Positions 1-53,600 of a stretch of DNA of 64,000 bases are shown here, in pieces. Within the stretch, counting starts at the first letter, position 1; every line of letters starts with the position of its first letter. Under the pieces are notes generated by a model. That model searched no databases and was not told where the DNA came from. It worked only from the letters and a program-made list of their open reading frames with translations. Made by a program: the position numbers and the translations under genes. Source of the stretch: Asterias rubens (lineage: Eukaryota); NCBI RefSeq assembly GCF_902459465.1, contig NC_047062.1:8308001-8372000 (forward strand), given 5' to 3'.

Positions 1-3000
1 CCCAGTTTTCGCGGTAGCCTTGTTTCTTCTTACATTCCCCGCATCTGTCGGTGCCGAAGTCTGCCGGTCGGCCAGTCCTTCCTGCTACGCACTCTGTGCA
101 GTTATTGATGTAAGCGCCTCCGTTGCACGAGAAGGCGCAATCCAAGGTGGCCTCGCCGTTGCAAACACCTTCGCAGTCCCGCCGGGCGTCACCGTTGCAG
201 ACGCCGGCACAGTCAAAAATACCACGGCATACCTCTGAGAAAAGGAATAACGTACATTGTAAATGAGAGGAAATGGAAGCGTTTACTATTGGTAACTACT
301 CAAAATAATTGTTTTGACATAAAAACATACTTGGTAACACTTCGTCATTGAGAGTTTGGGAACTCTTTAAAAAAGGGCATAATAGCACAAAAGAAAACAA
401 TTGCAGGACCCATACAAACCGGTTCAGTATGGCTGTGTGTGGAATATTGTCCACAATGTGGCTAACGGTCCCTTCACTGTGTTGATCTCTTTTGTTCCCA
501 GATCCATAACGTTTAAACACAATATTCATATCATTATACAATTATAAAATGCTTTTCTTAAGGTTATGTTGCATTAATGCCTTCTGGTGGAATCTAAACT
601 TCTCAATTTTGCAAAATGATAACAATACATGTATATTACACTGCAAAAAATGGGGTAATGAAGTTGACACCATGGGTGTTATGTCAAATATATATACCGA
701 AAAGAGAATCAAAAGACTGTTAACACCAAGGGGTATTAAAATAACACTTATGTGTGACTGCCGAACAATTACATTGGTGTTATTTTAAAGGAACACGCTG
801 CCTTGGATCGGACGAGTTGGTCTATAAAAAGCGTTTGTAACCGTTTGTTTCAAAATGCATTTGGTTGGAATGATGTTTTAAAAGTAGACTACAATGATCC
901 ACACAAATTTGCCCCAAAATTGCGTGTTTTTCCCTTTACTGTGCGAACTAACACGGTCGTCCAAAGGGAGTAAAAATTTGACTCCCATAAATGGCCGACC
1001 GTGTTAGTCGACGAGGTAAAAGGAAAACCGTGCAATTTCGAGACATGTTTGTGTGGACCATTGTATTCTACTTTTACAACATCTTTCTACTTATTTGCAT
1101 TTTATAACAGACGGTTACAAACGCTTTTCAAAGACCAACTCGACCGATCCAAGGCAACGCGTTCCTTTAACACCATGTGTGATGTAAGTTTTGATTCTCT
1201 TTTCTGTGTATATAAATAATAATAATAACAAATTCTTATATAGCGCATTTCACAATAAACCGTATCAATGTGCTTTACATTAGTCCCCTGGTCATTGGGC
1301 CTATAACATCCCTTTAATCTTTCTCAGCTCCTGTGGCGCTCCGAAGGCTTTGTCATTCACAATATCAACCTAAACCCTCGCAGGTACCCATATTTATACC
1401 CCTGGGGAGAGAAACAATTAGTAAAGTATCTTGCTCAAGGACACACGTGTCACGACCGGGGTTCGAACCCACACTCCGGTGACTTGGCATCAGAACTTGA
1501 ATTCGAAGCTCTTAACCACTCGGCCGTGATACTCTATTATGTGACAACATCCATGGTATCAGTTTTAATACCCCAGTTATTGCAGTGTAAAGACATAGGC
1601 CTAATTACAGGAGCTGATCTTACCTGCTTCTTCTCCGGTGAATATCTCCACGATCGTCTTACACATGTCATTCCCGCTGGCGACTCCAGTGATCCAGTAG
1701 AAGGGGTTCTCCGTCCAATCATCGGCTGAGCTTCCGGTAAAAAAGTTTATGGGTATGTCAAAAGCCTTCGTCACTATACCTATCGCTTCAGTGGCGAGTA
1801 CGCTGCATCTGTCAATATTTTGCGGAATGTCTAAGATGGACTCTTTGAAGCTTTCCAGCATATCTTCTTTTCCTTCCTGGTCGCCACTTTCCTCTATCTC
1901 AAGAAAGGTGTCGCATATCTCATCAACTCCACGCGTCCGTGTGGCGATGCTTATCAGGTTGTCAATGTCTTCAAATGGGATGTCCTCCTCGAGCATGAAC
2001 TGAATTAAGCTCTCCTTGTTCGTGCAAAACGTATAGAGGTAGTCTGAGAAGAAATCAAACATGGCGGCCGCTACGTTGAACCCAAAGTCTATCGCACTGA
2101 TGTCTCTGTTGAGAATGGCCTCTATGCCAGGGCAGACGTCGTCCTTCTCATAGCTTTCAATCCCGATGGCCTCAAGCAACGTCTCCAGCAATCGGTCGGT
2201 ATCAATGTCCCGGAACATGGGACGGTTGTCACTGTCCTCGCCCTCGAACAACGGCACGGCTACTGCGTCGCATTCTTTTCTGACCAATTCGGAATCAATC
2301 TCAGAGATAGAATCACAAAAGCCTTGAATTTCCTGAAGCTCAATATCGGTGTACTGTGAAATCAGTGGACTGACCTGCGTGCACACAAGACCAAGCCCAG
2401 CTCCCATCACGTCACTATTCCATACCGTACCCAAGGCAGAAATAATCAACTTAAACGACACTCCTGGTAAGACCATGCCCGGTGTCCAATCCAAGATGTC
2501 ATCCCACTCAGCCAAATCAAATGATGGGTCGACGATTGCATCCCAATCGACAGTCGGGCCGTCTCCTAAGTAAGCATCCACAAGGGCTACACACAGTGCA
2601 TCGACGTTTTGGAAACCAGTGTTGTTGTAGACGTCAAACGTCAATTCATTGGCGAAGGCATACTCGAAAAACTCACCACACGTGGCTTCACTGCTCAGTA
2701 CATCCTCCCACCTGTCTCTTATGTCGACTAGCATGCCCGATACATCGTCTGCTGTGATGTCGTAGAAACTAGAATTAATTGCCTGAACACCACGGCAGAA
2801 GGAGGCTGGATCATCGGAAGAGGTAAGGTAAGTCATCAACTTCAACAAGACATCTCGGCTACCTATTGGCTCTCGGTCGGTGGAATTGAAATAATCGAAG
2901 ATCGAAGTGTAATTCTCGTCGGTGGCAATCCAGCAAGGTTCGTCAATCCAGGAAAATACTCGCACCGTGAGTGCATCGAGGGCTTCATGAGCACCGGCCC

Positions 3001-5278
3001 GGAGTCCAGTCTGGTTTAGTGTTATAAGCTCGGAGAAAAAGTCACACACTCCAAAAGGATGCAAATCTACTTGCCATGTCCATGCTACAGTGTAGAGGGC
3101 GTCGTATGCTATATATTCGTTAATATAATACTCATGTTCATGCCAGTAATCGAGGAAAAAGTCGATGAATATATCCTCTTGCTCTTCCTCCCACCTCTCC
3201 CAGTCAAATACTTCAATCAAACCATACCAACCCCAGTACTGACAGACTTCCTCAAAATGACTGTAGTCCCTGCTCTCTAAAGCCGCACACATAGCTTCAA
3301 AATCACTACCCACTATGGACGAGTTGAAAGAGTCGCACATCACCTGGAAGGCTTTACTCGAATTACTCGACGAGTACATACTGCCGAATAATTTGATGAG
3401 TTTTTCTGCGGGAACTTCCGCCAAAACTGCGAATGGACCGTACAGGTGAGGCTCAAACACGGAGTACCAATGAAGCAACTGATCTTCGTCATCCCACCAA
3501 TCAGACCCGACCGAGTCGTACTCGCTCGATTCGTAAGATCCCCTTATTGTGTGTCTGTCATGCTCATCTCGGTCCTCGATCTTGTTAAGAATATCCTCTG
3601 TATCAATGTAAGTGCTACCCCCACTATTGTTGAAGGCGCTAACCACATCCAAGCACATTTCTTCAACATCGATACCAAAAAGATCACCAAATATTGGCTG
3701 TCCAATCTGTACACAAAGATCATAATCTTCCAAAGCACTCAGTAAATTAACTGTCAAGTTGTGTGCAAGACCCCGGTGATCTACCAGAACATCAGTTACA
3801 TTGAAATAGTCACCAGTACCGTTGAAATAGTCACCAGTACCGTTGAAATTGTCACCAGTAGCATTGAAACAGTCACCAGAAGCATTGGAATAGTCACCAG
3901 TACAATTGACATAGCTGTAGTTGTTATAACCGTACTGCTTAAAATCATGGCACTGCTCAATGTATGAAATTTCATAACCGGCGATAGCGCTTAAAATGTG
4001 ACCAATGATGCCACCGACACCGGTCACATTATGACGAAGAAAGTCTAGTTCTGAACCTTCACCCCACCATGACGACACCGAACCTGACCCAGAATCTGAC
4101 CCAGAATCTGACCCAGAATCTGACCCGGAATCTGACCCAGAATCTGACCCAGAATCTGACCCAGAATCTGACCCAGAATCTGACCCAGAATCTGACCCAG
4201 AATCAGATCCAAAATATGACCCCATAGAGTGAAAATCACTTCCACCAAAAATACCCTCTTTACCATAGCAACCTCTTGCCCAAATTTCCACCACGGATAG
4301 CATGATTTCTTCCGTAATGTAACGGACGATGTCTTTCACTGATTGGGAGTCACTGCGGATGTAATCAGTTACTCCCATGCAAGTACCGTTTGATTCAAAG
4401 ACGTCAAACCCAAATCCTTTGCTCAGCGGTTCGTGAAGCCAGTAAAACACACCAGAAAATGGAACATCTTCGAACTCCTCCCATTCATCATCTTCTGACT
4501 CATCGGCGTCTACCGATCTCCTTTTCCGTTTACGTTCACCACCTCCCGGAGCCCCCGTTTCTCCTCTGAAATCGTCACCCTCCTGTTGTTCCCCTTCAAC
4601 CCACTTCTCATCGCAGAACTCTTCAACACCCGTAACGGGCCGGTCATTGGACACCGCGTCTACAACTAAATCACAAGCGGCAAACACTTCTTCTGACAGA
4701 AGAAACGACACTGGTGCCAAGTTCTCGCATACGATTCCGGCCGAGAGGAGAATTGTGTCAGATTTGACCACCCTGCTGAAAACGGACACAACATCTTCGA
4801 ATGAAATGTCATCAAAAATTACACCAGGACTTGGGAATAAACGGTCATCTATGTCAAGTTCGCCCCCGCTGCTCCATGACCAACTTAGCCCCGTATCTTC
4901 AGGGTCGCTAAAATTACCAAAGTCAAACTCAACACTTTCGTCAAACCTTCCCAGGTCAAACTTACCCCCCTCTTCGAATTGCATCAAGTCGAACTCGCCA
5001 CCTTCCTCGAATTGCATCAAGTCGAACTCGCCACCTTCCTCGAATTGATTGGGGTCAATCTTAACTTCACCCTCAAGTTCGCCGATGTCAAATTGACCCA
5101 AAAACCCATCCGTTTCACCAGCAGTCTCAAAGTCAGTCCCTCCCACATCAAATACATCATCCATTCTTTCTTCACCACCGAATCCCCCAAATCGCCCAGG
5201 ATCTACCTGCCCTATGGAGGCATGCGGAAGAGCAAGCAACACTATCAGGGGAAATATTCCTCTCCCCCTTAGATCCAT
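1..5278 (-). CDS. Large acidic secreted protein (signal peptide, furin site, GSDS repeat, N-glycan cluster, Cys-paired helical modules, DCxGxCNG repeats); 3' partial
   Basis: The ORF track gives 1601..5329 (1242 aa). The likely start is Met18 at 5278 (context caacaacATGG), followed by the hydrophobic MDLRGRGIFPLIVLLALPHASIG. Strong donor GCAG|gtaaga ends the exon at 1624 (phase 1). Acceptor ttccttttctcag| opens an exon at 234 that reads in frame without stops to the window edge: EVCRGIFDCAGVCNGDARRDCEGVCNGEATLDCAFSCNGGAYINNCTECVAGRTGRPADFGTDRCGECKKKQGYRENW. Confidence 0.85.
789..1166. mobile_element. TTAA-flanked MITE, family B (Kolobok-like), intronic
   Basis: TIRs aggaacacg(c/t)tgccttggatcgg(a/t)cgagttggtc ... 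gaccaactcgaccgatccaaggcaacgcgttcct, with TTAA at 785-788 and 1167-1170. Related copies at 23557, 25981 and (partial) 19420. Confidence 0.8.
1212..1531 (-). mobile_element. tRNA-derived SINE
   Basis: On the minus strand: tRNA-like head (...ggccgagtggttaagagc...gggttcgaaccccggtcgtgacac), conserved gtgtccttgagcaagatact core and (tta)n tail. Homologous to the copy at 54521-54855. Confidence 0.75.
3795..3912 (-). repeat. Coding 21-bp tandem repeat encoding N-x-[T/S]-G-D-x-[F/S] (N-glycosylation cluster)
   Basis: ttgaaatagtcaccagtaccg-like unit about 5 times; protein NCTGDYS NASGDCF NATGDNF NGTGDYF NGTGDYF NVTD. Confidence 0.9.
4084..4210 (-). repeat. Coding 12-bp tandem repeat, (GSDS)10
   Basis: Ten ccagaatctgac-type units counted on the plus strand; they translate as GSDS on the minus strand within the large ORF. 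Confidence 0.95.
4925..5050 (-). repeat. Coding 33-bp tandem repeat (QFEEGGEFDLM-like)
   Basis: Two near-perfect copies of tcgaattgcatcaagtcgaactcgccaccttcc plus degenerate copies; protein QFEEGGEFDLM QFEEGGEFDLM QFEEGGKFDLG RFDESVEFDFG. Confidence 0.85.
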
Positions 5279-7699
5279 GTTGTTGAAGCTTGGAGTAGGT
5301 ATAATATTCCAATGAGGTTGACAAACCAACTAAAGTTGGCTGTTCTTGCACCGATCGCAAGTATGATATTACCAACTACTATCCAAGTTTTTTGGTTTTG
5401 AGGCAGAAGCTTAGCTTCGAGAGAAAAATCAATATCTCAATACCTTCCAGGCAGGCATTTATCGCCATTAATTATTTACGGCGTTTGCACCATAAAGAAC
5501 TTCCACTCATTCTTATCTGGAACATTTCACGAGACTTTACCGTCCTTGATCGATTTATTTATTGTTATAAAAAAGTTGCATTTCTTTGTGTACGCTGGTT
5601 GCCATCCAAGGATTTGTTTGAAGAAATTGGCATCAAAAAGATGTGTTAAAGACACTGTACACATTTTGGTAATTTGTCTCTCACTAACGGTGTATCCAAC
5701 ACAAGCACAACATTACAAAATATGTGAAAATTTTGACTAACTTGGTCAAACTTTTATTTTGTATATTTTTTGTCTGGACTTATTTTGTATAATATTATGC
5801 TTTCGGGGTTTTCTGATAACAGTAAATACATACAATATCATAATTATCACATGTAAGATGTTGGACATTGTTCTAGACTTAAAAAAATAAGTGATTCAGT
5901 TACTTGAAACCAGTATCACAATTTATAATTATAAATGAACACCCACCAGAGTCATGCAATCGAAAGGACAGACTGTGTTTTGAACCATTTGAACACCTTA
6001 GACGCACCAGTCCATCGGTGCCACCCACTGCCACGTGATGGTCAGTATTGCGTCACCTTGCGTTCATTGTAGGAGCTAGCAGGGGCAGTGACATAATGTT
6101 TCGATTTAACAATTAATCCTCATCTTCACAGTCTCCCCACCTCCATCTCTTGGTGCCCGATCGCGCAAACTAATAAACTGTGCCCTTCCAAGTTTCGATG
6201 ATTGTATCAGCAGCTAATTTTATATTTCGAACACATTTTTATTGTTACTTTCCCTGATTCCACTACGGGTCTATGCATAAAGAGAGTAAGGGTCTATGTA
6301 AATGCTTGATGGTGCAATACCATGGTCTCCAATTTTAGCATCAAGCAAGAAAAGGTTCACATGAATCGTAAATTTTATAAAGTGATCGTTGGACTCACTT
6401 GTTTCTTCCCATCGTAAAACATACACGCCTGTGGGTAAGGATGAAACTTCATTGTTTTAAGGAATTTTTAAGTCATCATCATCAATACTACAATTCATTT
6501 TATGTCCAATCCATACACAAAATAAACAATGTGAAATATATTTATATTATGTGATGTGAGTAGGCAGTGACCAAGTAAATAAATTTGTACAATACAACCC
6601 AAACGAACAGAGAACTTCTGAGGATTTTGGTACTTTTTGCACAAAACACAATGTCCACAGATTTACATATAATTTACACCGTTTGAAGATAATGATAGTA
6701 GAAAGCGTACCTTAATATATTAGTTGCTGAGGTGCAGTAGTTTTTGAGAAATGAGTAGAACAATGTAACGAAAATACGTTTATACATGCTAAAATAATTT
6801 TCGTCTCATGATCTCTGAGACGAAAATGATTTTCACGACATTGTTTTACTCATTTCTCAGAAAATACAGCACCTCAGCAAGTACCTTTTTTCAGGGAAGC
6901 TTTCTACCATCATTATCTTCAAACTGTGTTAGTTTAATGTAAATCTGTTTTGTTTTTTTGTCCTACAAAATTCTCAAAGCAATTGATTGAATGAAACCTA
7001 TATATTTGGTAACGATCAATGGAGACCTGTTGATTAAACGTTGTGAGAAACGGGTCCCTGTGTAGTTTGTAACGTAGTTTTTGAGAAAGAAATACTTACA
7101 CAAAACAATAAAAGACTTCAGCTGAAGGCCTTTTATTATGCATCTGAAAGCTCACAAAGTAAAGCACAAGAAAGTTTGTTTTTGTTTTGTTTTCATTTTG
7201 CAAATCATTGATTGGGCAGAAATTTCACAGGTTTGTGATTTTATGACGGTTTGGATACCACCAAGTGAAAATACTGGTCCATGACAATTACCAAAGGTGT
7301 CCTGTGCTTTAAATGCGGCATTAATTCAAATCCTTCTTTCTCAAAACACATGCACAATTAACCGATGAAGCGTTCGTCCAAATCTGTGGTCAGTTGAGTG
7401 AAAACCTATATAATTGGGTTATGTTCATTCAAAGTTTAGCCGACGTTTTTTTCCCACTCTAGTTCATTGACAGTATTTGCAGGTACGTCACGAAGGAGGC
7501 ACGTAGTACCCCACAGTCCCTCCCGCTGGTAATCCCCCCCCCCCCTGTTAGGTATCTGGGTCTTTGGAATATAACAACATTACAGAAATAAAATTTCTTG
7601 GAATTAGAAATATACTCACACGTAGCAAAATTGATTTGATTTGACCTTCACGACAGATTTTCACTCATAAAAAAAAAAAAATGACAGCAACATTTTTGG

Positions 7700-31005: not shown

Positions 31006-32030
31006 CTACAGTTTTTCGGTGAACTTTTTAATTTCGGGCATTATGTATACCTGGCTGTTGTTTTGCTAATGTTTGTTTTTTGTGTGTGGTTTAGTGCCGA
31101 GTAAAGAATAATAATAGTTATTTTAATTTTGTTTTTAACAGAAAGGGGTCACAGCTTTTTGTACAGTAGTGCCCGGTTCGTTTATTGAAGGTCCAAAAAT
31201 GTTTACATATACCTGTAGGTCTATACGTCCTTCAGACATATAATATACTTCAGACCTCTATTAGAATGCAATAAAACACCTGCAATTTAACCATCGGTGT
31301 TTTATTAAGAACAGTTTATATTATGTTTGATGTGTGAATATACAGTGTTTGCTGTCAGCCCCACCTTGGCATTAATGTACTCGTGATATTACACGTTGCT
31401 ATCTATAGGTGCGTTCAGTGACTTTATTAAAAGTTGATCAATAACTTCTAGACGGGGATGCAGTCTTTTCAGGTGTTTTTTTTATCTCACACCTTTAACC
31501 TGCTTTATAGATTGATCGTCATCAACCGTCACATAATGAACGTTACTTAATATACTCGCGATTGTGATTGGTTAAGTGGGATTGTAATAGACAGATTAGC
31601 TTGGATGTGGTGTGTGTACATGTACGTGTGTTTTTAGTCGGAAACGGTATTGCCGTATCTACACGCATAGCAGCATCATCATCATTATCATCTGCACGGT
31701 GAACGGTTATGCTGTTTCCCCCATCTCTGATTTTGTAGGATTGCCTTTTACATAATTTATTATACACATGCAGCATGATGAACGTGATATGCAGACATTG
31801 CACTGGGGGCGATTGGAGCATTTGTTGGGCTTACGTGATTGAAGGGACACTAGATGCGACAGCGGGGTCAGCAACAGAGAGAGAGGGAGAGAGAGCCTTG
31901 TACGACGTCCGTCGCATAATTTATCCTTAAATGCATGAGAGCGGGTCGCAGGAGCGAAATTGACGGCAGAGCATTAGATCAACTGATGGATGCTCGCTTA
32001 TAACGGTAGGTGTGATTTGCAGCGGACAGT

Positions 32031-33581
32031 ATGTCGGCTAAAGACACGTTATTCCGCCGTATACCTTCAATACGAGACCGTATGAGGAGGAGGGGAAGCT
32101 TGGGGCAGATATCTGGTGCCGTGGCCATCCATGATGCGGTTGCTAAGGGAAAGATTCACCTTGCTAAATTCATCCTAGATGCCGTGGAAGGACAGCTACT
32201 GGTCGATTCAAAAAATGCTCACGGTAAAACTCCTCTTATTTGTGCTGTGCGAATCACTGAGGAAAGTGTCCGCAATAGAGCTGTGGATATGTTGATTGGC
32301 TACAACGCGAGCGTAAATTTATTAGACAACGTTGGACGCAGCGTTCTCAGCTATTCGTGTGAGCTGCACTGCAATGCCGTGGTAAGGAAACTTGTCAAGA
32401 ATAATGTGGACCCTAACTTGGAGGACAACATCGGCAATACGCCGCTGATGTATTGTGCTATGGTGAACAACACCACTGGGATCGAGATAATAGCGCGGAG
32501 TTATCGCAGGCTCGGGCTGGAGGTTGACAAGGTGAACGCGGACGGGATGACGCCCCTCATGGAGGCATCAAAGAACGGCTACCTCGAATGTGCACGGCTT
32601 CTGATTCACGAGGGGAAAGCCTCGGTCAGCCCCCGGGATATCGTCAGGAATATGACCGCCGCGGATTGGGCGCGAGAGGCCGGCTGCACCGCCCAAGAGA
32701 TTCAGGCCCTCCTTCAAATAACACACCGACCACGCCCATGTATTGGGAAAACATCAGCTGCGAATGCATCTCAATTGAGAATGGAGGAAAACATGTGTAG
32801 AAACCACGCGGGACGTAGTCGTCAGTTTACTCCAAGTCTTAACTCAGTATCTTCCTTGTTGGAGTTATCGGACGCAAGTGGGAATCCAACATTCCCAGAG
32901 CAAGTCCAAACGCAGAAGGAAAAGAAGGGCAAACACCCTCTGAGCATGGAAGAGCTACCGAGCAAATTTAAGGAGCTGCGTTCTAGAGTTCAGCACAACA
33001 CCTCCAGTTTCCCAGAACTGGTCACAAAAGAAAAACTCATCGCTTCGAAAAATGGCCACTACTTCGCAGTTGAGAACCCGCGGCATGGTAAACCAATCGT
33101 CAGCGCACCGCAGGGAGGTGCGTTCACCAAGCGCCCTAAGCCACCCTCGCAACCCAGACGGCCGCACTCGGCGGCGGCATACGCCCTGGGCAAGCTCAAA
33201 CACCGGCCGACCAAAAGCTGTGATAGCATCCTCGTGCGGACATCGTCCTCTATGGAAGATTTATTACTACTACGTGATTTTAACTCCCCTGAGATGCATC
33301 CCTGTGCTCCGTTTAGCCCTAAGGTTAAATCGAACAGCACGAGTCACTTGTACCATAGGATCGACTCATCATCCGGTAGCCAGAATTCAGAGCAATGGGA
33401 TGTCATATGCTGTGAAGATGAGAAATTAGATGATCTTAAATTGCACACGGGAGATATTGCTCGCCGAGAACGGGCAATTTCAAACCCCATACAAGACGAA
33501 AATCTAGCTTTCCCCTCCAATCAGTTACGACTGGAGTCTAATACACACCTCCCAGCTATTTCCCCGAACCACAGATCGTGA
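32031..33581 (+). CDS. ANKRD63: Ankyrin-repeat protein, ANKRD63-like, intronless, 516 aa
   Basis: About five N-terminal ankyrin repeats (GKTPLICAV, GRSVLSYSC, GNTPLMYCA, GMTPLMEAS). Family-specific GKIHLAKFILDA and RSYRRLGL match vertebrate ANKRD63 GKVHLARFVLDA and RSFRRLGL (from memory). Low-complexity C-terminal tail. Confidence 0.8.
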   Translation: MSAKDTLFRRIPSIRDRMRRRGSLGQISGAVAIHDAVAKGKIHLAKFILDAVEGQLLVDSKNAHGKTPLICAVRITEESVRNRAVDMLIGYNASVNLLDNVGRSVLSYSCELHCNAVVRKLVKNNVDPNLEDNIGNTPLMYCAMVNNTTGIEIIARSYRRLGLEVDKVNADGMTPLMEASKNGYLECARLLIHEGKASVSPRDIVRNMTAADWAREAGCTAQEIQALLQITHRPRPCIGKTSAANASQLRMEENMCRNHAGRSRQFTPSLNSVSSLLELSDASGNPTFPEQVQTQKEKKGKHPLSMEELPSKFKELRSRVQHNTSSFPELVTKEKLIASKNGHYFAVENPRHGKPIVSAPQGGAFTKRPKPPSQPRRPHSAAAYALGKLKHRPTKSCDSILVRTSSSMEDLLLLRDFNSPEMHPCAPFSPKVKSNSTSHLYHRIDSSSGSQNSEQWDVICCEDEKLDDLKLHTGDIARRERAISNPIQDENLAFPSNQLRLESNTHLPAISPNHRS

Positions 33582-40402: not shown

Positions 40403-43400
40403 CTAAAAAGAGCAAATTGCAGTTACATTTGCAGCAATGACGGGTGCAAGTGTCGCCCGAGGTGAGTATTTAAGGTGCTTGTAAAAGTCTGCCGTCTCCT
40501 GATGCTGACATGCAAGCTGGATGTACCGCACTTTTAGACATCTCCTGGCGTAGTCTTCCAACAATTGGTGCATTTTTTTACCTAGTCCGCTATTCCTTCT
40601 GCTTTTCTTGATCACAACTAAATGCATTCACAAAAATGATTAGTTATAAACTGGTTAGTTATTAAAAACAAAACAAAAAAACATTTCTTTTACTTTTTAT
40701 GGTTTATGATTGGATGATGTTTGCTTTTATGTATTGTACAAAATGTTTTGTTGAATGAACGTCTTGTTTTGAACATTCTCTTACAAGACACTGGACACTA
40801 TTGGTAATTGTCAAAGACCAGTCTTCTCACTTGGTGTATCTCAACATATGCATAAAATAACAAACCTGTGAAAAATTGAGCTCGATTGGTCGTCGGAGCT
40901 GCGAGATAACTATGAAGAAAAAAACCTTGTCACACGAAGTTATGTGCTTTCGAATGATTGATTTTGAGACCTCAAATTCTAAATCTGAAGTCTCGAAATC
41001 AAAGTCGTGGAAAATAACTCGAAAACTACGTCACATTAGAGGAAGCCGTTTCTCACAATGTTTTATAATATCAACATCTCCCCATTCCTCGTTACCAAGT
41101 GAGGTTTTATGCTGATAATTATTTTGAGTAATTACCAATAGTGTCCACTGCCTTCAAAAATGTTTGTTCTTATAACGAATTCTGATATTTTGATGATGTT
41201 AGTTATACCTGATTCAACATAAACTCGGTTTTCGTCTCCGACGACCTCACACACTCTCAAGTGACCGACAACTTCCTTTGTCGTTGTAGCGCCCCCTCGC
41301 GTCTCCACCATTATTAACGAACATGGTAGACCTGTACATTGCGGAGTTTCTAGCAAATGCAACCTGTCCACATGAAAAGACAATAATATCAATTTCGGCA
41401 CGTCAGTCTCGTAATCTAGGGGATGTGCGGTCTGTATAATGAAGCCCTACCCCTAGATGTAGCCCGACCTATAGCCTCAAACTTGCTCTTAAGGTAATAT
41501 AGCCCCGTCCTGTTTTGTTGCACCGAAATTGTACCATTGCCTCCGACCTTAGTGTAGCCTCGAACGTGTACCTCTAATTACTGAAATAGCCCAAAAGTCT
41601 ACCCATCTGCAGCCGTCTAAGAAGCAAATTTGTACCGTAGCCCGACCGAGTGTAGCCTTGACCTAACTTTGAAACGGAACCTCCCGAACTTATGCAGCCT
41701 CAACCTAAATGAAGCCCCAAACTTGTAATAGCCCCAACCATGGTATCCCAAAGTTTGTACCTAAATGTAGCCGCGACCAAGTTGTAGCCATAAATTCCAC
41801 AAACATTGCACGTAGCTAAATTGTACATTAAAATGTAGCCCGACCTAAATGTAGCCCGGGCAATTAATTGACAACCTTTTAAAATGCCGCCACTGATTTT
41901 CTTAAATTGTTTTGAAGTTAAAGTGGAATTCTCTTGGGAAAAAATGCCTTATCACCTGAAATTCTTGTATTCAAAACAAACAAGAGCATGTTTAAATAGG
42001 TACTTCTCAAGACAAACCGTTTGTATGTTCAGTCTAACATTAATTTATTGCAAGTTTGAAGAACGAGCAGATCGCGTTGTTTCCATTGTATTTCAAAACC
42101 AAATACGAGGCAACAACTCGGCATAAATTTTCATTATTGTTATTATTATTATTAAAGCACATTAGCTATCGTTAAACAGTTTGTATCTATAACATTAATT
42201 ATGGGATAACTAACACGGCCAAACTGTCTCATCAAACACGCAACGTTCTGTTTGGATGATGCTGTACATGATCAATCTTGAGCGGTTAAGGGTACTAAAT
42301 TTCTGGGAATTCATATTGATGAAAATTTGACTTGGAAGAAGCATATTGGCACTATAGCAGTTAAAATATCTAGAAATATAGGTATAATGAATGGGCTTAA
42401 AAATTTCCTTCCCTGTAGCATATTACTGACCTTGTACAACTCTTGTATTTTACCTTATCTTTATTACGCAATTTTGACATGGGGAAGTCCAACTCCTAAA
42501 TGTAATAAACTTCTCACTCTTCAGAAACGTGCAGTTCGGGTTATTTCCAAAAGCGGACTATTGTGAGCACTCTGGGCCTCTCTTTTGTAATTTAAAACTG
42601 TTAAAATTCGTTGACCTTTATCATCTTAACTTAGGAAAGTTTATGTATAAATATATGAATAATCTTTTACCTGCTTGTTTCAACTCCAGTTTTACACTTA
42701 CCTCAAACATCCACTCCTATTATACCCGTAGCGCTGCTAGGAAAAATCTGTATGTTAACTATCGTATAGAACCTCGTTGTCTAAAAATGGTGTTGTCCAG
42801 CGTGGCACTTTATTTTGGAATAGTCTGGACGACTCTTTTAAATCATTGCGTACTCTCTCGACTTTTACCAAAAAACTTAAAACTTGTTTTCTTAATGAAT
42901 ACTAAGAATCTGATGTTATTTTTGTATGTAGAAATTGTAACGGCTTTATTTTCTGTCTTACACCTGTCAATTTTGTCCTGTTAGTTTTGTCCTGTATTTT
43001 GAATGTCTGTCTGTTTTTTTGGTTTGTCTGTTCATAGGCTGGGGAACAAAAGCTGTGCTTCTCCCCGGACCTAGATGTTGCCTTTTGTTTATTGTTTCAT
43101 CTTTTAATATATTTTATATTTACTTTTATTTTGTCCATATTACTCTGTATTATACACTATTTGCAACATTGAATAAACGTTTATATCTATCTATCTATCT
43201 ATCTATGTACATCATCTACCAATGTAAACAAAAGACCTGGAGTCCATCCGTCCACTGAGAAAAGACCTTTAGTCCGTCACGTCAGACTAAAAGATTTAAC
43301 ATGGAGACCATGTACGATGAATGTAGATTTCTACCTCCATGAACCAACCAAGTGGCACCTCTCCATTGTATTGTGTTGTACTAACTTGTTTTGTGTTAAA

Positions 43401-44303: not shown

Positions 44304-45744
44304 CGTCTCTCAGTTTCAGTTTCAACTACGGCAAGCAGTTGTGTAGTTTTGGAGCGATGTCTGTTCATGCTCTGTCATTGACTATGTTTCTGTTGCGGAA
44401 ATCTACGGAAGCCGGGTAGTGCCAGGAGATAAGAAGTGAAATACTTTTCATGAGTGCGATAATAATTATTTGTTGTACCATTTATCTAGCGGTCGCCACA
44501 TAATTATCTGGCGGGTGTAAAGGGGAAAAGTTAAATCTCAATACGTTCAAAGCTATAGGTTAAGTATTATACAACTATTCCCTATTAGACATGTATTGGA
44601 AACATTAAAAGCACGTAGGCCTATGATACGAGGCGTTAATATATCAAGTTCTTAGTTAGGGAGGGGGGCAAGGCGATACAGGTGTTGGTTGGGGTGGGGT
44701 TTGGAACTGAGGGAAGGTGCGAGGAAGAGATTTTCGGAAGGCGGAAATAACTCTGGAGCGGGAAATTCGAAACCAAATCCGGTGACAGGGGGGCTGGAGG
44801 GGTTTGAAAAGCCGAAAACATAATTTATCGGTGGTCTCTGGTCCTAAACCATTCCCCGACTGTTTGGTGTGGTTTTGTGGTTTTCCCAAATCAAGGCAAT
44901 GGTTAAAAACAGACCTTTGTAAAGAACGTGTAGTCCAGACCGCTAGATAATTAAGTGGCAGCCGCCAGCAGATTAATGGTACAAAAACAATATTATCGCA
45001 CTTATAAACAAGTCGGTTACTGGTTGGCAGATAATTACCCACGTTCGTCCTGGAGAAAAAAAAACCGCCACACACCGGAATCGAACCAGGGAAGCTAAAC
45101 GAACGCACCCGGGTATAGTCTTGGTTCCAAGACCATTGGTGTTGCGCGGTCACACACAACCAATGGTCCGATCATATCTATGCACGGCAAAAACTGTACA
45201 CGCTTTGTGTTTCAATAGGCTATGCTTCATACTTTAGTTAGTAAACAATGATTTTAGGTGCACAAGATTATAGACACGAGTCACTGATTTAAGCTAACAT
45301 CCGGGAACGTTTAATGCAACACACGAAAGGTCAAAGGTCAATAAACAACTTTATGCATATTGCAACATCCTCCTCTTTTTGAGGAAGGAGCATTTTTGAA
45401 AGCCACAACAATTTAACTCCAACTTGAACACTGGGAAAAACAAGTTATTTTAGACATGCATTAAATCATGTTTTCTCCAAAGAAGAAAAAAAAAACAGAT
45501 GGAAAAAAAAAAAAAATAGAGAAACAATTTGTTTTCTCTAGTCAAACAAAATGAGGGATTTCTCCTAACTTTTTTTTATTTTTTTTTTTGATAAACCAAA
45601 ATACCCTCTTAACTGTGGAAGGCATACATCTGCTTAAAACGCCTTTTTTGGTTTGAACAAAAAAAATTTTTTTTTTAGATATATAAACTCAAGCAACTGT
45701 TGTCAATTTGTGAACAGCATCTTGTTTTGATTTGAACTCAGTTC

Positions 45745-47589
45745 TCAGTATTTAACAAAGTCCTTTAGTCTGCTAGGTTCTTTGATCATTCTACCAGATC
45801 TGGTCTTTGGCAAGTCTTTCAGTTCAATTGTCTCTTGTTGAGGGTTTGGGTCAATTGTTTGATGCATTCCTGGGGGGTGTTCCATTTGAGGGATGCGAGT
45901 GGGTTGTTTCCGTGTGGGTTGTTTCGGTGTTCCAGATCCATCAGATACTTGTGGGTCTGGGTGACTCTGTGGTGGTAGGATGGTTTGCTTTGTAATGCAT
46001 TGGTCAGTGGGGGTCGGGGCATGCAAGTGTCTCATGTTTGTGTGACCATGCATTACTGGTGGTTCTTCACGCGTTTTCTTCAGGTCAACACGATTGCGTC
46101 TCAAGGTCTGTCCTTGTTGGGTTTCGATTTCGTAGGATCTCTCGTCCAGTCTCTTGCTTACAACAGCCCGTGGCCACTGTTTTTCTCCAGAGCGGAATGG
46201 TTTCAGTCGTACAACATCTCCTTCTGCCAGCGATGGCAAGTCTTTTGCATGTTTGTTGTAGTTGTCCGACTGTTTTCTCTGTAGATGTTTCATTTTGGCT
46301 CGCTCACTTTCCATGATGTCTCTTCCTCTTGGTACTAACAGGCTGTTAGATGTGGGTAGAAGGGTTCTGGTTCTTCGGCTATGCAGTCTTTGTGCGGGAC
46401 TGCTGCTGATTCCTTGAGTTGGAGTATTTCTCAGTTCAAGAAGTGCCATGTATGGGTCAGAGTTGGCTTTCTTGCACTTCTTCAGTAGTCTTTTTGCAGC
46501 CTTCACTGCAGACTCCACTTTACCATTAGATTGGCTATGTTTGGGGGAGATAGTGAAATGTTCAAAATCCCAAACTTTGGAAAATTTCTTGAACTCATCG
46601 GACGTGAACTGACCACCATTGTCGCTGATTACCGAGTTTGGTATGCCATATCTTGCAAAGTGAGATTTCAACTTTTTTATGACAGTTTTTGAGGTCAGGT
46701 TGTGGAGTCTGTCTATTTCCCAGAAGTTGGACAAATAGTCAACAGTGATTAGGTAGTCCTTACCATCATACTCTAGAAGATCGGCTCCAATTTTCTCCCA
46801 GGGGCGGTTTGGTAGATCATGAGGCATGAGTGTTTCCTTCTGGTTTTTTGTCTCATATGATCTGCACGCATCACACTTTGATACAAACTGCTTTATCTCA
46901 GCAGACATGCCTGGCCAGAATAGACATTCACGAGCTCTCCTGAGGGAACTTTCAACACCAAGATGAGAGTTGTGAACTGTCTTGATCATTTCTTTCCTGA
47001 GTGAGCTTGGTATTACGATGCGCTCCCCTCGGAACACAAGACCATCCGAAAGGGAGAGTTCGTCACGAACGTTGAAGTAAGGTAGTGTTTGGGATGGAAG
47101 GAAGTCTTTCTCATCGGGCCACCCTTGTTGGATCACCACTTTCAGTAGTTGCAGTGATTCATCTTTGTCCGTTTCTTCTTTTATTTGTCGTAGTCTGTCT
47201 GGTCCCATGCTAAGGCTATCAACCAGGTTGACCTGAGCAAAGTCATCTGATCCATCAGTGTACGGTAGGTAGGATCTGGACAGCATATCTGCAAGATGCA
47301 TTTCCGTGCCTTTCTTCCAGAGAATTTCTATGTCGTAGTTCAACATTCTCATCAGCATGCCTTGGAGACGTCTTGGGGCACGATGAAGTGGTTTCTTGAC
47401 AATTGTCTCGAGCGGTTTATGGTCACTTTCAACTAGAATTTTTTGACCAAAGGTGTACTGGTGGAATCGTTCAAGTGCGAACACGATTGCAAGAGCCTCT
47501 TTCTCAATTTGGGCATATCTCTGTTCAGTTGGGGTCAATGCCCTACTTGCATAAGCAATTGGTTTTCCTTCTTGTAGGATAGCCGCACC
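45745..47589 (-). CDS. Retrotransposon RNase H (C-terminal part) plus integrase
   Basis: GAAILQEGKPIAYASRALTPTEQRYAQIEKEALAI (RNase H) begins at 47589, in frame with ORF 45745..47538. H2C2 (HNSHLG...CDAC) and D-D-E core (GADL, ISDNG, GKVESAV). Confidence 0.9.
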   Translation of the reverse strand, partial: GAAILQEGKPIAYASRALTPTEQRYAQIEKEALAIVFALERFHQYTFGQKILVESDHKPLETIVKKPLHRAPRRLQGMLMRMLNYDIEILWKKGTEMHLADMLSRSYLPYTDGSDDFAQVNLVDSLSMGPDRLRQIKEETDKDESLQLLKVVIQQGWPDEKDFLPSQTLPYFNVRDELSLSDGLVFRGERIVIPSSLRKEMIKTVHNSHLGVESSLRRARECLFWPGMSAEIKQFVSKCDACRSYETKNQKETLMPHDLPNRPWEKIGADLLEYDGKDYLITVDYLSNFWEIDRLHNLTSKTVIKKLKSHFARYGIPNSVISDNGGQFTSDEFKKFSKVWDFEHFTISPKHSQSNGKVESAVKAAKRLLKKCKKANSDPYMALLELRNTPTQGISSSPAQRLHSRRTRTLLPTSNSLLVPRGRDIMESERAKMKHLQRKQSDNYNKHAKDLPSLAEGDVVRLKPFRSGEKQWPRAVVSKRLDERSYEIETQQGQTLRRNRVDLKKTREEPPVMHGHTNMRHLHAPTPTDQCITKQTILPPQSHPDPQVSDGSGTPKQPTRKQPTRIPQMEHPPGMHQTIDPNPQQETIELKDLPKTRSGRMIKEPSRLKDFVKY

Positions 47590-48121
47590 TGAAACATGGT
47601 GGCAGCGGTGAAGTATTCATCATAGAACTCTAAGTTACGTTTTTCTATAATGAAAAACTGAAGAGAACCCGTCCAGGAGAAAAGCAAAAAAGGACAACCG
47701 ATCAGTCCGTGAGCCCATCTATCTACATGCGTCCGTGAACCACCGTTCTGCACTACACTACACTCGTCTGTGGATGTGTACGTCGCCCGTAAGTTGTAGT
47801 TTAAACTCTTAAACCGTGTTGATGTTTAGCAATGTTGATAGTCACCGAAACAAACAAAAGTGACGGGAAAGTGATTGTACTTAAAATAGTAGGAAAACGT
47901 ACAAGAAATATGCAATCTGAATCTCACTGAACTGATGATAAATGCATACCTACTCAGTACTTTCACTCATCATGCTAAAAATAACACACTCTCGACTCGT
48001 GAGAGGACTCACTTCATGAACATTGTGAACTACATCTGTACCGCTCACTGACACCTACGCACCTGACTAGTGCTCGTATCTACGTTGCTGTTTTGGCATA
48101 AAAAAAATATATATATAAAAA

Positions 48122-50154
48122 ATGGCTTGTGCTAAACCCCTCACCCATGTGTCTCCCCCACCTCAACTAAAGCTCAAAGAAAATGCAATCGAAGAGTGGA
48201 AAATGTTTAAACAGATGTACTCCAACTACTGCATTATAACTGAACTGAGCAAACATGACAAGGCATATCAAAAGGCAGTATTCCTTCACTCTATGGGCCC
48301 TGCTGGGGTAAAGATCTTTAATAGCCTGACCTTCTCTGAAGATGATGATAAAGATGATATCACCCTTATCACGCAGAAACTTGATCATTACATCATTGGT
48401 GAAGTAAATGAAACATATGAGCGATATATGTTCAATAAGAGAGACCAAGAAGCATCAGAATCTATAGAGGCTTATCTATCAGCTCTCCGTGAACTTGCCA
48501 AAACATGCAACTTTTGTGATTGTTTACAAGACAGCCTACTTCGTGACCGAATTGTTCTCGGGATCCGTGACTCACACACACGTAAACTGCTGCTACAGAA
48601 ACGCAAACTCACTCTAAAGATGGCTCTTGATATCTGCAGGTCAGCTGAAGCAACCACATTTCAGCTGAAATCCTTTGGTGAAACCGAAACTGAGGCTGTC
48701 CACAAAGTTAGTGACTGGAAAACTAAGGATACAACAGCTAAACACACAGGGAAACTCCCCACCATCACATGCAAATTCTGTGCTCGCAAACATCTGAGAA
48801 AAAAAGAACTCTGTCCTGCATGGGGAAAAACCTGTAGCTTATGCAAACGAGACAACCACTTCAAGCAATGCTGCAAGTTCAACAAAGAGACACGCAAAGT
48901 TCACGCACTAGATGACGCCCATGTGTATGGCTCTAATGAATCATTAGACTCTAGTGGCACTGAATCCATCAACTGTGTAGAGATTGCTGTCAATGCTGTA
49001 GAAAACACCAAAGGTGCTCTCTTTGCTGAAATGATGCTTGATGGCAAATCAATGAAGTTTCAAATAGACTCAGGAGCTACCGTCAATGTTTTGCCAAGGA
49101 AATATGTGACTGAATCCACAATTCAACCACACAACCTCACACTTAAGATGTACAACCAGTCCACGCTAAAAGCTGTTGGCAAGACAAAAGTCATCTTGCG
49201 CAACCCCCAAAATAAGAAGAAATACAGGGTTGAATTTGTGGTGATTGAACCAAACTCCTTCACTCCCCTCCTTAGCCGCAATGCTGCTGAACGCATGTCA
49301 CTGATCACGGTCAACTATGACAACTTCAGACTACTGCACTCAGTAAACGTCACATCCACTGAAGGCATTCTTGCAGAATATGATGATGTATTCAAAGGCA
49401 AACTTCCAGGCTCTCTACCAGGATTAGTCCACCTCCACATTGCAGAAGACGCAAGACCAGTGCAATGCTCACCTAAGAAAGTACCAGTGTCACTAAAACA
49501 CAAAGTCAAGACAGGACTAGCACAACTGGTTAAAGATGACATTCTTGCACCAGTTGATGAACCTACTGAATGGTGTAGTCGCATGGCAGTGACAGCAAAG
49601 AAAACCTCAAATGATCTACGATACTGTATCGATCCCCGTCCACTGAACAAAGTACTACAAAGAGAGTTGTACGAATTGCCCGTTATGGAAGACATCTTAC
49701 CAGAACTTTCCAGAGCTAAAATTTTCTCTAAACTGGACCTCCGATCTGGATATCTACATTGTGTGCTTGATGACCAAAGTAGTCTGCTCACTACCATGAT
49801 GACACCGTTTGGCAGATACAGATGGAAAAGACTCCCATTTGGTCTGAAAGTCAGCTCTGAAATATTTCAGAAACGCCTCCACCAAGCGATTGCTGACCTT
49901 GACGGCATTGAATGCGTTGCCGATGACATCATTGTTTTTGGTGTTGGCGATACAACCGATGAGGCAGAACAGAGCCACAATGCAAGGCTAAAACAACTCC
50001 TCCAGAGATGCAGAGAAAAAGGCATCAAACTCAATGGAGAAAAATCTGAGATCAAATCTCAAAGCATCACCTTCCTAGGACACGTTGTCACCAGTGAAGG
50101 TCTAAAAATTGATGCAAAAAAGGTTGAAGCCATCACCAAAATGAGTAATCCCAC
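48122..50154 (+). CDS. Retrotransposon gag-protease-RT (inverted segment, truncated after KMSNPT)
   Basis: CCHC-type knuckles (CKFCARKH...C, CSLCKRDNH...C), protease FQIDSGAT, RT motifs CIDPRPLN, FSKLDLRSGY, WKRLPFG, ADDII. The ORF runs into the reverse-complemented PBS and LTR and stops at 50176. Confidence 0.92.
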
Positions 50155-50644
50155 CGCTGCCACCATGTTTCAATAGGCTATGCTTCATACTTTAGTTAGT
50201 AAACAATGATTTTAGGTGCACAAGATTATAGACACGAGTCACTGATTTAAGCTAACATCCGGGAACGTTTAATGCAACACACGAAAGGTCAAAGGTCAAT
50301 AAACAACTTTATGCATATTGCAACACTTTGTATGACCGAACGCTAACGGGCGCTCAGTTTCCCTCAGTGTGTGACCGCGCAACACCAATGGTCTTGGAAC
50401 CAAGACTAAACCGGGTACCACTGTAAGCACATACCGCGACAACAAGGTGTCAACATCACCGGAGTTAAATTGTCCGCCTCCTGGTATTTTCATTTTTAGA
50501 AGACGAGTAACAATTTTAAAATTATAGGTGCTTTTTCAACAGCTGCGTTACTTTTTTTGCTGTCTTTATAATTATCTGCACATAGTTTATTCGCACGCAC
50601 GTGGTTTTGGCAGTAGCCATCTAGGTCCATATATACACGGGACG

Positions 50645-53600
50645 ATGGAGTCCAATTTAAGTTCAGAATCCGTTATTACGTGGCTACATTTTGTCACAGC
50701 CGGGACGGCGGTCATCATTGGGTAAGTATGACGATGACTAATTATAAAATTATTATTTTGCTCGGACAGGTTTCTGCGCGAATATTTGATTTCAAATCAA
50801 AGTTCAATGTTGGTGCAATAATTGAATAAAACTCATAGTACGTAAGTATAGTATAGCATAGCAGCTAGCATTCAGTCATTTCAAGAATACATGACAATAC
50901 AAAAATACATCCAGATGATGGGCTAGGACTTTTAGGAGAAACAAAAGCAAAATAATTACTGTGGTCCATAGATCTTCCTCCCCACAACTGGTTGTAAAAC
51001 AAGTAAAAACGAGTAATAAAATATGTATGTTTTTTGTAGGCCTATTAATAAATAAAAAAAGTATAAAACAATGTACAATACAAAAAGATAGGAAATTTAA
51101 GTTAATTTAATATATATTATAACAATCAATAAATCAATTAACAATCATGATAAAATTTCAGAAAACTCGTTGTGTGATGGCAGCTGGATTTTTAGCAAAG
51201 CAGGGGGAAAAGTTTCCGTATGGCACCACCACTTTTTCATTCGATATGAAATTATTGTATCTAATTTAACTTCATTGAGATATCCCTTTTGGCTTTTTGT
51301 AAGAATGAGTGAAAAAGTGGTGGCACCATTTGGAAAGTTGATAATGAATGCTACTATGGTTACACACCTATATTCCGACACCCCTATGTTCCGACACCCC
51401 AATGTTCAGACAACTCCGCCCATATTCCGACATCCCTATGTTCCGACACCACTGTATTCCGACACCCCTGTATTCCGAAACCCCTATATTCCGACACCCC
51501 TATGTTCGGACAACTGAACCTATATTCCGACACCCCTATGTTCGGACAAGTTATTTTCGCACAAGTTATTTTCGCACAAGTTATTTTCGCTCAATATTAC
51601 TCTGTTGAACAATAACAAAAACACAACTTGTATTACAGGTTTCCCGGTGAATTTCGGCCGGGAATAGGCCTAAGTTTGGACATTCGTAAGTTGAATTTGT
51701 ACTATTTTTTTTTTTAAAGGCAGTGGATACTAATGGTAATTACTCAAAATAATTATTAGCATAAAACCTTACTTGGTGACGAGTAATGGGGAGAGATTGA
51801 TGGTATAAAACTATGTGAGAAACGGCTCTCTCTGAAAGGCCATAGTTTTTGAGAAAGAAGTAATTTTCCACGAATTTGATTTTGAGACCTCATATTTAGA
51901 ATTTGAGGTCTCGAAATCAACCATCTAAATGCACACAACTTCGTGTGACAAGGGTGTTTGTTCTTTCATTATTATCTCGCAACTTCGACGACCGATTGAG
52001 CTCAAATTTTCACAGGTTTGTTATTTTATGCACATGTTGAGATATACCAAATGAGAAGACTGGTCTTTGACAATTACCAATATTGTCCACTGTCTTTAAG
52101 TGAAGGAATCAAATAATAGATAATCGAATCACACTTGAATTTGTTGCTTGTTTAGGCAACAAAACACACAAAATGTTGTTGTTTTTTGTACACTGAGTAC
52201 CATTTTTTTCTCTAACTATTGCAGGTACTTGGTGTGGACTTACACTTTCTTCATTAGAAATGGAATTCCTGGACCACTGTCCATGCCATTAGTCACAACC
52301 ATCAAAAGATCACGAGAGGTAGGACAGTGGCTTCAATATTTTCTAAGATACCGTCGCAGCAACAATTGGCTTGTCTTAAAATGCTCATGAGCGGTCTCCA
52401 AACGGCTGCTAGATTTGACCAACTTCTGTTATTCACACCAAACTAGTATACAAATATTGACTGCTTCAAGTGCTATGGTTAAAACTATGACTCCCTCAGT
52501 GATCCCCGGAGTGTTCTATTTTCCCAAGGCGAAACTATGACTCCCGTGGTGATCCCCGGAGCGTTCTATATCAGTGGCGAAGCCGAGGGTAAATAGAACG
52601 CTCCAGGGATCACCAAGGGAGTAATAGTTTTAACCATTGCACGAGTAAAAGCAGTCAATACTTGTTTTACAACACCCCAAACATTTCTAAATACTGTACT
52701 ATTTTTTACATACCTGAATGATACAATCCACGGACGACGCGAATACAGATTGCGAAAACTTTTACTGTGCTCTGCATGTAGTGTCGTGTAGTCCGAAATG
52801 GTTACAGACTATTAATTTATCATCCTCGTACACGCACAGACGTTTGGGTACTGCACGCCGTGTGATAGTCTTCAGCAAACCGATGCACTATCACACAGCA
52901 AACCGATGCACTATCACACGGCCGTCGTCTAGTAAAGTTAAGACTTATCATGTGACGCGCTCTAAACCAATGAAAAGGCAGAATATTGGTAAGGGGTGTT
53001 ATAATCATAATTATTCCCCTTTAATATCCCGTATTGAAAAATAGTGTCATAATTTAATTGAACCCCAATCCATTGCACCCACATTAACTTAAATGTTGGT
53101 TTTATACTAGATCATGAACCAGGCCTGATAGTTCACGGAGGCAACGAATGATCCAGTCTTCCTCATCATAGGGTGCTCTTTATCAAGGAGAAAATGCATT
53201 GGGGCCTTGTCCTTTCAAAAACAAAGCATATATAGGCCTGATGAGCGTCAACATTGACTAGCACCATAAAGTACAAATACTTTGGTAGGTGCTCAGCTTT
53301 ATGCTTTGAATAATGTTGGTTTCATGCGTGTACCAGCTACCTTAAAATGGTATATGCGTGCACTTGTCAAGAAACACAAAAACTATTTCACAAAGAAAAC
53401 AGTTGATTTGAAGCCTCGGAGCACAATAAGCACATTGTCCCTACCAATATCCTTGTTGATATTATTATATAATAATATCCTTGTTTAGTATAGGGGCCAT
53501 TTATCCGCTAGTGGATGAGCCGATCTTTATATCACATGTTAATACACCCCCCACGTGACCAGTCTTCGACCAATCAGAGTGGTATAATTTCTCTGAGGTA

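Follow-up and report, generated by a model that had tools for sequence, protein, structure and literature searches.

The question raised by this locus is how an LTR retrotransposon came to carry one block of its interior in reverse, with one of the two breaks lying exactly where its primer-binding site (PBS) ends. The element lies in a 64,000-nt stretch of the Asterias rubens genome (NC_047062.1; hereafter the window, whose numbering is used for all coordinates given without a contig handle), spans positions 45208-50325 on the minus strand, and is a Ty3/gypsy LTR retrotransposon. It is bounded by a direct pair of LTRs with TG...CA ends, each of 160 bp and on the minus strand (5′ LTR, 50166-50325; 3′ LTR, 45208-45367), which are identical at 160/160 positions. 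A PBS follows the 5′ LTR, and the 3′ LTR is preceded by a polypurine tract (45368-45382, minus strand), identified from its sequence and found equally before the 3′ LTRs of sister copies. The retrotransposon hit an arm of a host inverted-repeat element (arm at 45109-45157, partner arm at 50367-50415) that has 44 related places among the matches listed. Because CTTTG is single in four uninterrupted arms of this host repeat, the two copies that flank the insertion (45203-45207 and 50326-50330) are a true 5-bp target-site duplication (TSD); most other arms have a variant at that place.

The coding sequence between the LTRs is divided between the two strands. In the orientation of the LTRs lies a frame encoding RNase H, with its N-terminal part lost, and integrase (45745-47589, minus strand; Pfam RT_RNaseH, E 1e-20; Integrase_H2C2, E 1.1e-14; rve, E 4.3e-7). 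On the plus strand, starting at the join between 47589 and 47590 (junction 2), follow a duplicate of the last 7 nt of U5 (47590-47596, identified by comparison with sisters), a native 14-nt PBS joined to the leader (47597-47610), the inverted 5′ leader (47611-48121; 94-100% identity to the leader regions of sisters) and an inverted gag-protease-RT frame (48122-50151), which is open as far as junction 1 and ends within the C-terminal part of RT (RVT_1, E 1.3e-20). The colinear sisters have the Ty3 order PR-RT-RH-INT, and Ty3-G Gag-Pol (7q5b) is within the top three PDB matches (E 3.7e-20). Its short LTRs and two Cys/His motifs in gag suggest that the element may belong to the Mag clade of Ty3/gypsy. 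Elsewhere the window contains an open frame of 1,242 aa that lacks Pfam matches and includes tandem repeats of 12 bp and 21 bp (1601-5329, minus strand), a 521-aa open frame with ankyrin repeats (32016-33581, plus strand), a 16-bp tandem repeat array (51362-51564) and, at 42200-43210, a TCTA-repeat end with a 168-aa frame that lacks a Pfam match, presumably resembling a decayed LINE 3′ end.

Five sister copies in the genome, all of them colinear, reveal what has changed. The inversion, which is present in the assembly, comprises the block 47590-50151 (leader, gag, protease and RT), so that, compared with the sisters, the gag-protease-RT frame is opposite in strand to the LTRs and the RNase H-integrase frame. 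Between RT and RNase H, 250 nt are missing relative to the sisters (245 nt relative to one of them). A segment of 21 bp, made up of the last 7 nt of U5 and the 14-nt PBS, is present twice, and the pair forms a perfect 21-bp inverted repeat. The nearest sister differs from the window copy by 8/2541 and 8/1842 substitutions in the two parts; with so few differences and with sisters that are colinear, the window copy is young and its rearrangement private, and the same counts, taken with the identical LTRs, leave little time for a rearrangement after insertion. The window element is a single broken copy with no sign of function or spread. Among the sister copies, one (L032/L033, G000:C13) is split by approximately 3.1 kb in the leader and approximately 140 bp in RNase H.

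A sequence-only reading of the window had proposed that the breakpoint next to the 5′ LTR carries the footprint of the tRNA-Leu primer, and much of its description of the junction proved accurate. The PBS motif is present twice, against 0.11 expected by chance, at 47597-47610 on the plus strand, where AAG follows, and at 50152-50165 on the minus strand, where GGATT follows. Host tRNA-Leu (AAG/TAG) genes end GGTTCGAATCCCACCGCTGCCA, as the reading had stated, and the match to the mature tRNA is 19 nt long next to the LTR (junction 1; 50147-50165, minus strand, of which 50148-50165 are the 18-nt match) and 14 nt long at the leader copy. The PBS of intact copies was likewise rightly taken to be short: it is 14 nt in 5/5 sisters, which rules out a native PBS of 18-19 nt for this family, although PBSs of that length do occur in other families (L071, L097/L099 and nine copies like L121). 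The RT side of the junction was misjudged. Native RT was expected to read AATCCCAC, giving perfect complementarity to 8 nt of the tRNA-copied end, but 5/5 sisters read AATCCAACC, and loose ends in public contigs continue in the same way. Perfect 8-nt pairing with native RT is thereby ruled out by a single base, and the pairing is 7/8 for an 18-nt tRNA end and 8/9 for a 19-nt end.

Positions 50147-50151 are native RT sequence, and together with the native PBS at 50152-50165 they spell the whole of junction 1, so that no base of it is uniquely tRNA-derived. The match to the tRNA reaches 19 nt where the native PBS provides 14, yet the five additional bases equal native RT, and the tRNA footprint at junction 1 is therefore one of position. 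The left break coincides with the point where the native PBS ends, and the 5 nt beyond it carry the tRNA sequence on.

How probable such a site is by chance was gauged on the sister copy L028 and on three further sisters, which gave similar results (four of the five sisters in all). The 5-nt match to the tRNA continuation is found at 6/5,284 sense positions of L028 (approximately 1 in 900), and the observed site is the only one among these positions with an 8/9 match. When positions on both strands were ranked by 3′-anchored stacking energy, calculated without gaps and with DNA parameters as an approximation for an RNA/DNA hybrid, the observed site came seventh of 10,570 for the 18-nt end, to which it is complementary at 7/8 nt, and second of 10,568 for the 19-nt end. 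The 18-nt end mispairs once, 5 nt in from its primer terminus, and six other sites score equally well or better; a 14-nt end has no 3′ pairing at the observed site. For the 18-nt end, the highest-ranking sites do not include the normal landing site itself, since the native PBS departs from the tRNA beyond 14 nt. These figures describe one event and a site pattern picked after the fact; it is nevertheless unlikely that a process blind to the tRNA would join a break at the PBS end to such a site. The proposal of mis-priming by the tRNA-copied end thus keeps the support of the site rank, and of LTR ends with 18 nt of tRNA at other loci (see below), and loses the perfect pairing and the 19-nt overhang.

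Junction 2 contributes less. Exact homology is lacking at the join itself; 3-5 nt away from it is a 6-nt word of a kind also present in 40/4,968 control windows. We did not count this word as evidence, since it depends on a U5 base private to the window copy (present in both of its LTRs and in 0/14 other LTR ends), and since its 5-nt version is common (398/4,968 control windows). Junction 2 may be read in other ways, and the proposed RNase H trimming 7 nt inside U5, though plausible, is unsupported.

Evidence for the length of the copied tRNA end came from the rest of the genome. The 18-nt tRNA-Leu end is found at 58 genome sites, against none for the controls, and the exact match stops at 18 nt in 43 of them, at 19 nt in 11 and further on in four; nine of the 43 belong to a single family whose native PBS is 18 nt long. 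As 43/58 sites fit a stop at tRNA position 58, with chance extension in others, the 19th matching base at the window junction is likely to be a chance match derived from RT. Of the two lengths contained in the sequence-only reading, 18 nt is thus supported and 19 nt is not, and a 19-nt overhang can be dispensed with.

All 50 sites at which CA precedes the PBS core were read for the length of the tRNA match, which was 13 nt at 18 sites, 14 at 13, 15 at four, 17 at one, 18 at 11, 19 at two and 20 at one. A colinear gag-pol lies downstream of 26/35 short-match sites versus 1/15 long-match sites (Fisher p 1.8e-5, where copies of the same family are not independent). Single members with an LTR and 18 nt of tRNA occur in families whose other copies have a short PBS, namely L067 (ten relatives at 13-14 nt), L070 (three relatives at 14 nt) and L085 (two at 14 nt). 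At L067 (G000:C5:15353186-15361186, 839-1020), a whole LTR with 18 nt of tRNA lies within a host repeat, without a TSD, with 3 nt lost and with a GGAT join; the empty form of the repeat reads CTTGGAT in 17/19 copies, so L067 was joined via the same four bases as the window element. Read-through tRNA copies of 40-47 nt follow an LTR-like end at L068, L074 and L120. L068 and L120 have T>A opposite position 58, and in L068 and L074 the copy breaks off at 47 nt, immediately short of G37. The stops and changes are seen as positions, which would correspond to m1A58 and m1G37.

Other tRNA-Leu ends are of more varied form. Approximately 40 isolated 18-nt 3′ ends with CCA (L114-L145, L057-L108), many of which have no preceding CA, lack a retroelement frame within 7 kb downstream; they may be strong-stop ends that were captured, or copies of other RNAs primed by the tRNA. 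L085 and L090 consist of an LTR end, 18 nt of tRNA, an A and inverted U5 sequence, and look as though plus strong-stop DNA had been sealed in a hairpin to the start of the minus strand. Three tRNA-end copies lie within 340 bp at L100 (2870-3228), with a different sequence after each; L117, L119 and L135 hold clustered or tandem copies (repeat unit at L117, 372 bp). The tRNA-Leu 3′ motif also recurs in long arrays, spaced at multiples of approximately 149 bp (G000:C18:3471836-3479123 and C55:36-7662), which are probably tandem tRNA genes. L096, a short element of LTR, PBS, approximately 500 bp and LTR, is related to L080 and is likely to be a non-autonomous derivative.

A second inversion was not found among the 100 listed of 119 13-mer sites for this tRNA-Leu end. 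The only other opposite-strand pair within 10 kb among the sites listed, L078/L079 (G000:C11:6551454-6551707), was rejected as such, since its members come from different gypsy families that lie back to back; one of the LTRs there is cut to 56 nt, and the pair is likely to be a nested insertion. A retroelement frame on the reverse strand was present (tblastn) at 0/55 other loci with a match of at least 17 nt, a count made without the three sites of L100, for which the separate reading of tRNA-end sites gave no matches.

Public sequencing runs were consulted at the level of contigs and for junction 1. In four of 24 runs, representing at most three samples, none of the contigs listed spans the junction; only colinear copies are seen among them, and the window insertion is not, an absence that weighs little because contigs drop rare variants and the runs may not come from the assembled individual. 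In run X2, the depth of the junction bin (1008.9) is fully explained by the three contigs listed, and this sample is therefore without a junction contig.

We consider it likely that the rearrangement was driven, during reverse transcription, by a tRNA-copied overhang acting as either primer or template, an intermediate that the genome-wide counts support well. Since the PBS pairs 14 nt and the tRNA is copied for 18, the strong-stop DNA of the plus strand would bear a 4-nt overhang, GGAT, unable to pair at the normal landing site. As to its role, we lean towards priming. The GGAT-ended strand would pair with RT sense RNA over 7/8 nt and be extended antisense through gag, the leader and the PBS to 7 nt inside U5. 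It would then join a minus strand that had reached RNase H, with the loss of the approximately 250 nt between the two points, and, as both LTR ends are normal, integrase would have inserted the product with its 5-bp TSD. Alternatively, in a role that the sequence-only reading had not considered, the same overhang could have been the template: a stalled minus strand would jump to the 3′ end of a second minus-strand DNA, make a sense copy from U5 to RT and then switch at ATCC onto the tRNA-copied strong-stop end. Identical sequence results, and sequence cannot separate this route from priming on sense RNA. It needs only the 4-5 perfectly paired nucleotides, and a GGAT join of this kind exists at L067, but it leaves unused the 3 matching nt past the mismatch and requires two DNA-to-DNA jumps together with a second completed minus strand, and we regard it as rather unlikely.

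Explanations in which the tRNA plays no part have to account for the position of junction 1. Inverted duplications are a known outcome at staggered breaks, and breaks of this type at U5-PBS, followed by host repair with a resected RT-RNase H break, would invert the block after integration and leave the 21-bp inverted duplication, with the tRNA match a coincidence. The element alone can indeed spell every junction base. Such an event would nevertheless require two independent features, a break that falls precisely where the PBS ends and the 5-nt match expected about once in 900 positions (6/5,284); the LTRs are identical, no uninverted allele was seen at the site in the four runs (a weak test), and we judge it improbable. 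An assembly or library artefact would fit the result that 0/4 runs (at most three samples) show a contig over junction 1 and the fully accounted depth of X2, but the window contains no N, the TSD is clean, the private U5 base is common to both LTRs and absent from the 14 other LTR ends, and an artefact would not favour a join that matches a tRNA; its probability appears very low. Lower still is that of autointegration followed by reinsertion. Inversion circles are described as a by-product in LTR retrotransposon particles (PMC7197481), but in autointegration the LTR termini become linked to a site within the element. The window copy has host DNA, with a TSD, at both outer termini, its inner joins are at the PBS and inside U5, and 245-250 nt are lost; these junction positions largely refute the idea.

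If the overhang was indeed the agent, the window element is a natural record of what becomes of the first plus-strand strong-stop DNA where more tRNA is copied than the PBS can cover, a step so far studied mostly in yeast Ty elements and HIV. It suggests that microhomology can save this supposed dead end and let it integrate, and the inversion route would join the known deletion route. The signature, an inverted U5-PBS pair with a continuation of the tRNA, can be screened for. More speculatively, and with more doubt than confidence, the 18-nt tRNA end that metazoan gypsy elements with a short PBS would routinely make and be unable to pair might mis-prime generally, as the LTR equivalent of L1 twin priming. 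Were this so, its products would be inversions anchored at the PBS, one-ended LTR insertions and captures tagged with tRNA sequence, and the stops at positions 58 and 37 would form a genomic record of germline tRNA modification.

In L1 twin priming, microhomology allows a second primer to pair within the RNA, which leaves a 5′ inversion and an internal deletion. The window element has such an inversion and internal deletion and would share the internal microhomology priming; the second primer in L1 is the target DNA end, whereas in this LTR element, inserted by integrase, strong-stop DNA of the element itself would take that part. We found no report of a PBS-anchored inversion in the literature, where older subscription papers and supplements may hold cases; proviral inversions are listed in the accessible text of PMC9278108 without a mechanism. 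Template switching and cDNA capture are covered by PMC11372161 and PMC3187697. In Ty1 cDNA capture at double-strand breaks, intermediates with bases found only in cDNA enter the genome (PMC11372161), an outcome that L067, L070 and L085 resemble; because the window element keeps both LTRs intact and has a TSD, it does not qualify as a capture of this type.

The closest likenesses are to Ty1/Ty3 and HIV-1. In Ty1 and Ty3, as here, the PBS is too short to pair with all the tRNA copied into strong-stop DNA, which amounts to 12 nt of tRNA-iMet in yeast and 18 nt of tRNA-Leu in the window element; a Ty3 review describes the first strong-stop DNA, with its 12 nt of tRNA, as a dead end whose tRNA sequence is not inherited (PMC5371799), whereas in the window element that product was apparently rescued and integrated. 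For HIV-1, PMC12657518 documents tRNA inserts at plus-transfer junctions, with 44 proviral sequences that carry tRNA-Lys3 inserts at deletion junctions, and gives m1A58 as the normal stop of tRNA copying; the word 'inversion' is absent from its main text. This aberrant (deferred) second-strand transfer shares with our element intact LTRs, a defective provirus and, if the overhang was at work here, tRNA-copied DNA past the PBS at the junction. In HIV-1 the overhang comes from read-through, and the end lands on downstream minus-strand DNA, giving a colinear deletion with a visible tRNA insert of 7-54 nt; in the window element the overhang would come from a short PBS, and the end would meet sense-strand sequence, giving an inversion with a duplicated U5-PBS. 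The block being inverted, the colinear deletion of the HIV-1 type is not matched, and the rearrangement, seen once, is probably an inverted form of this HIV-1 transfer error.
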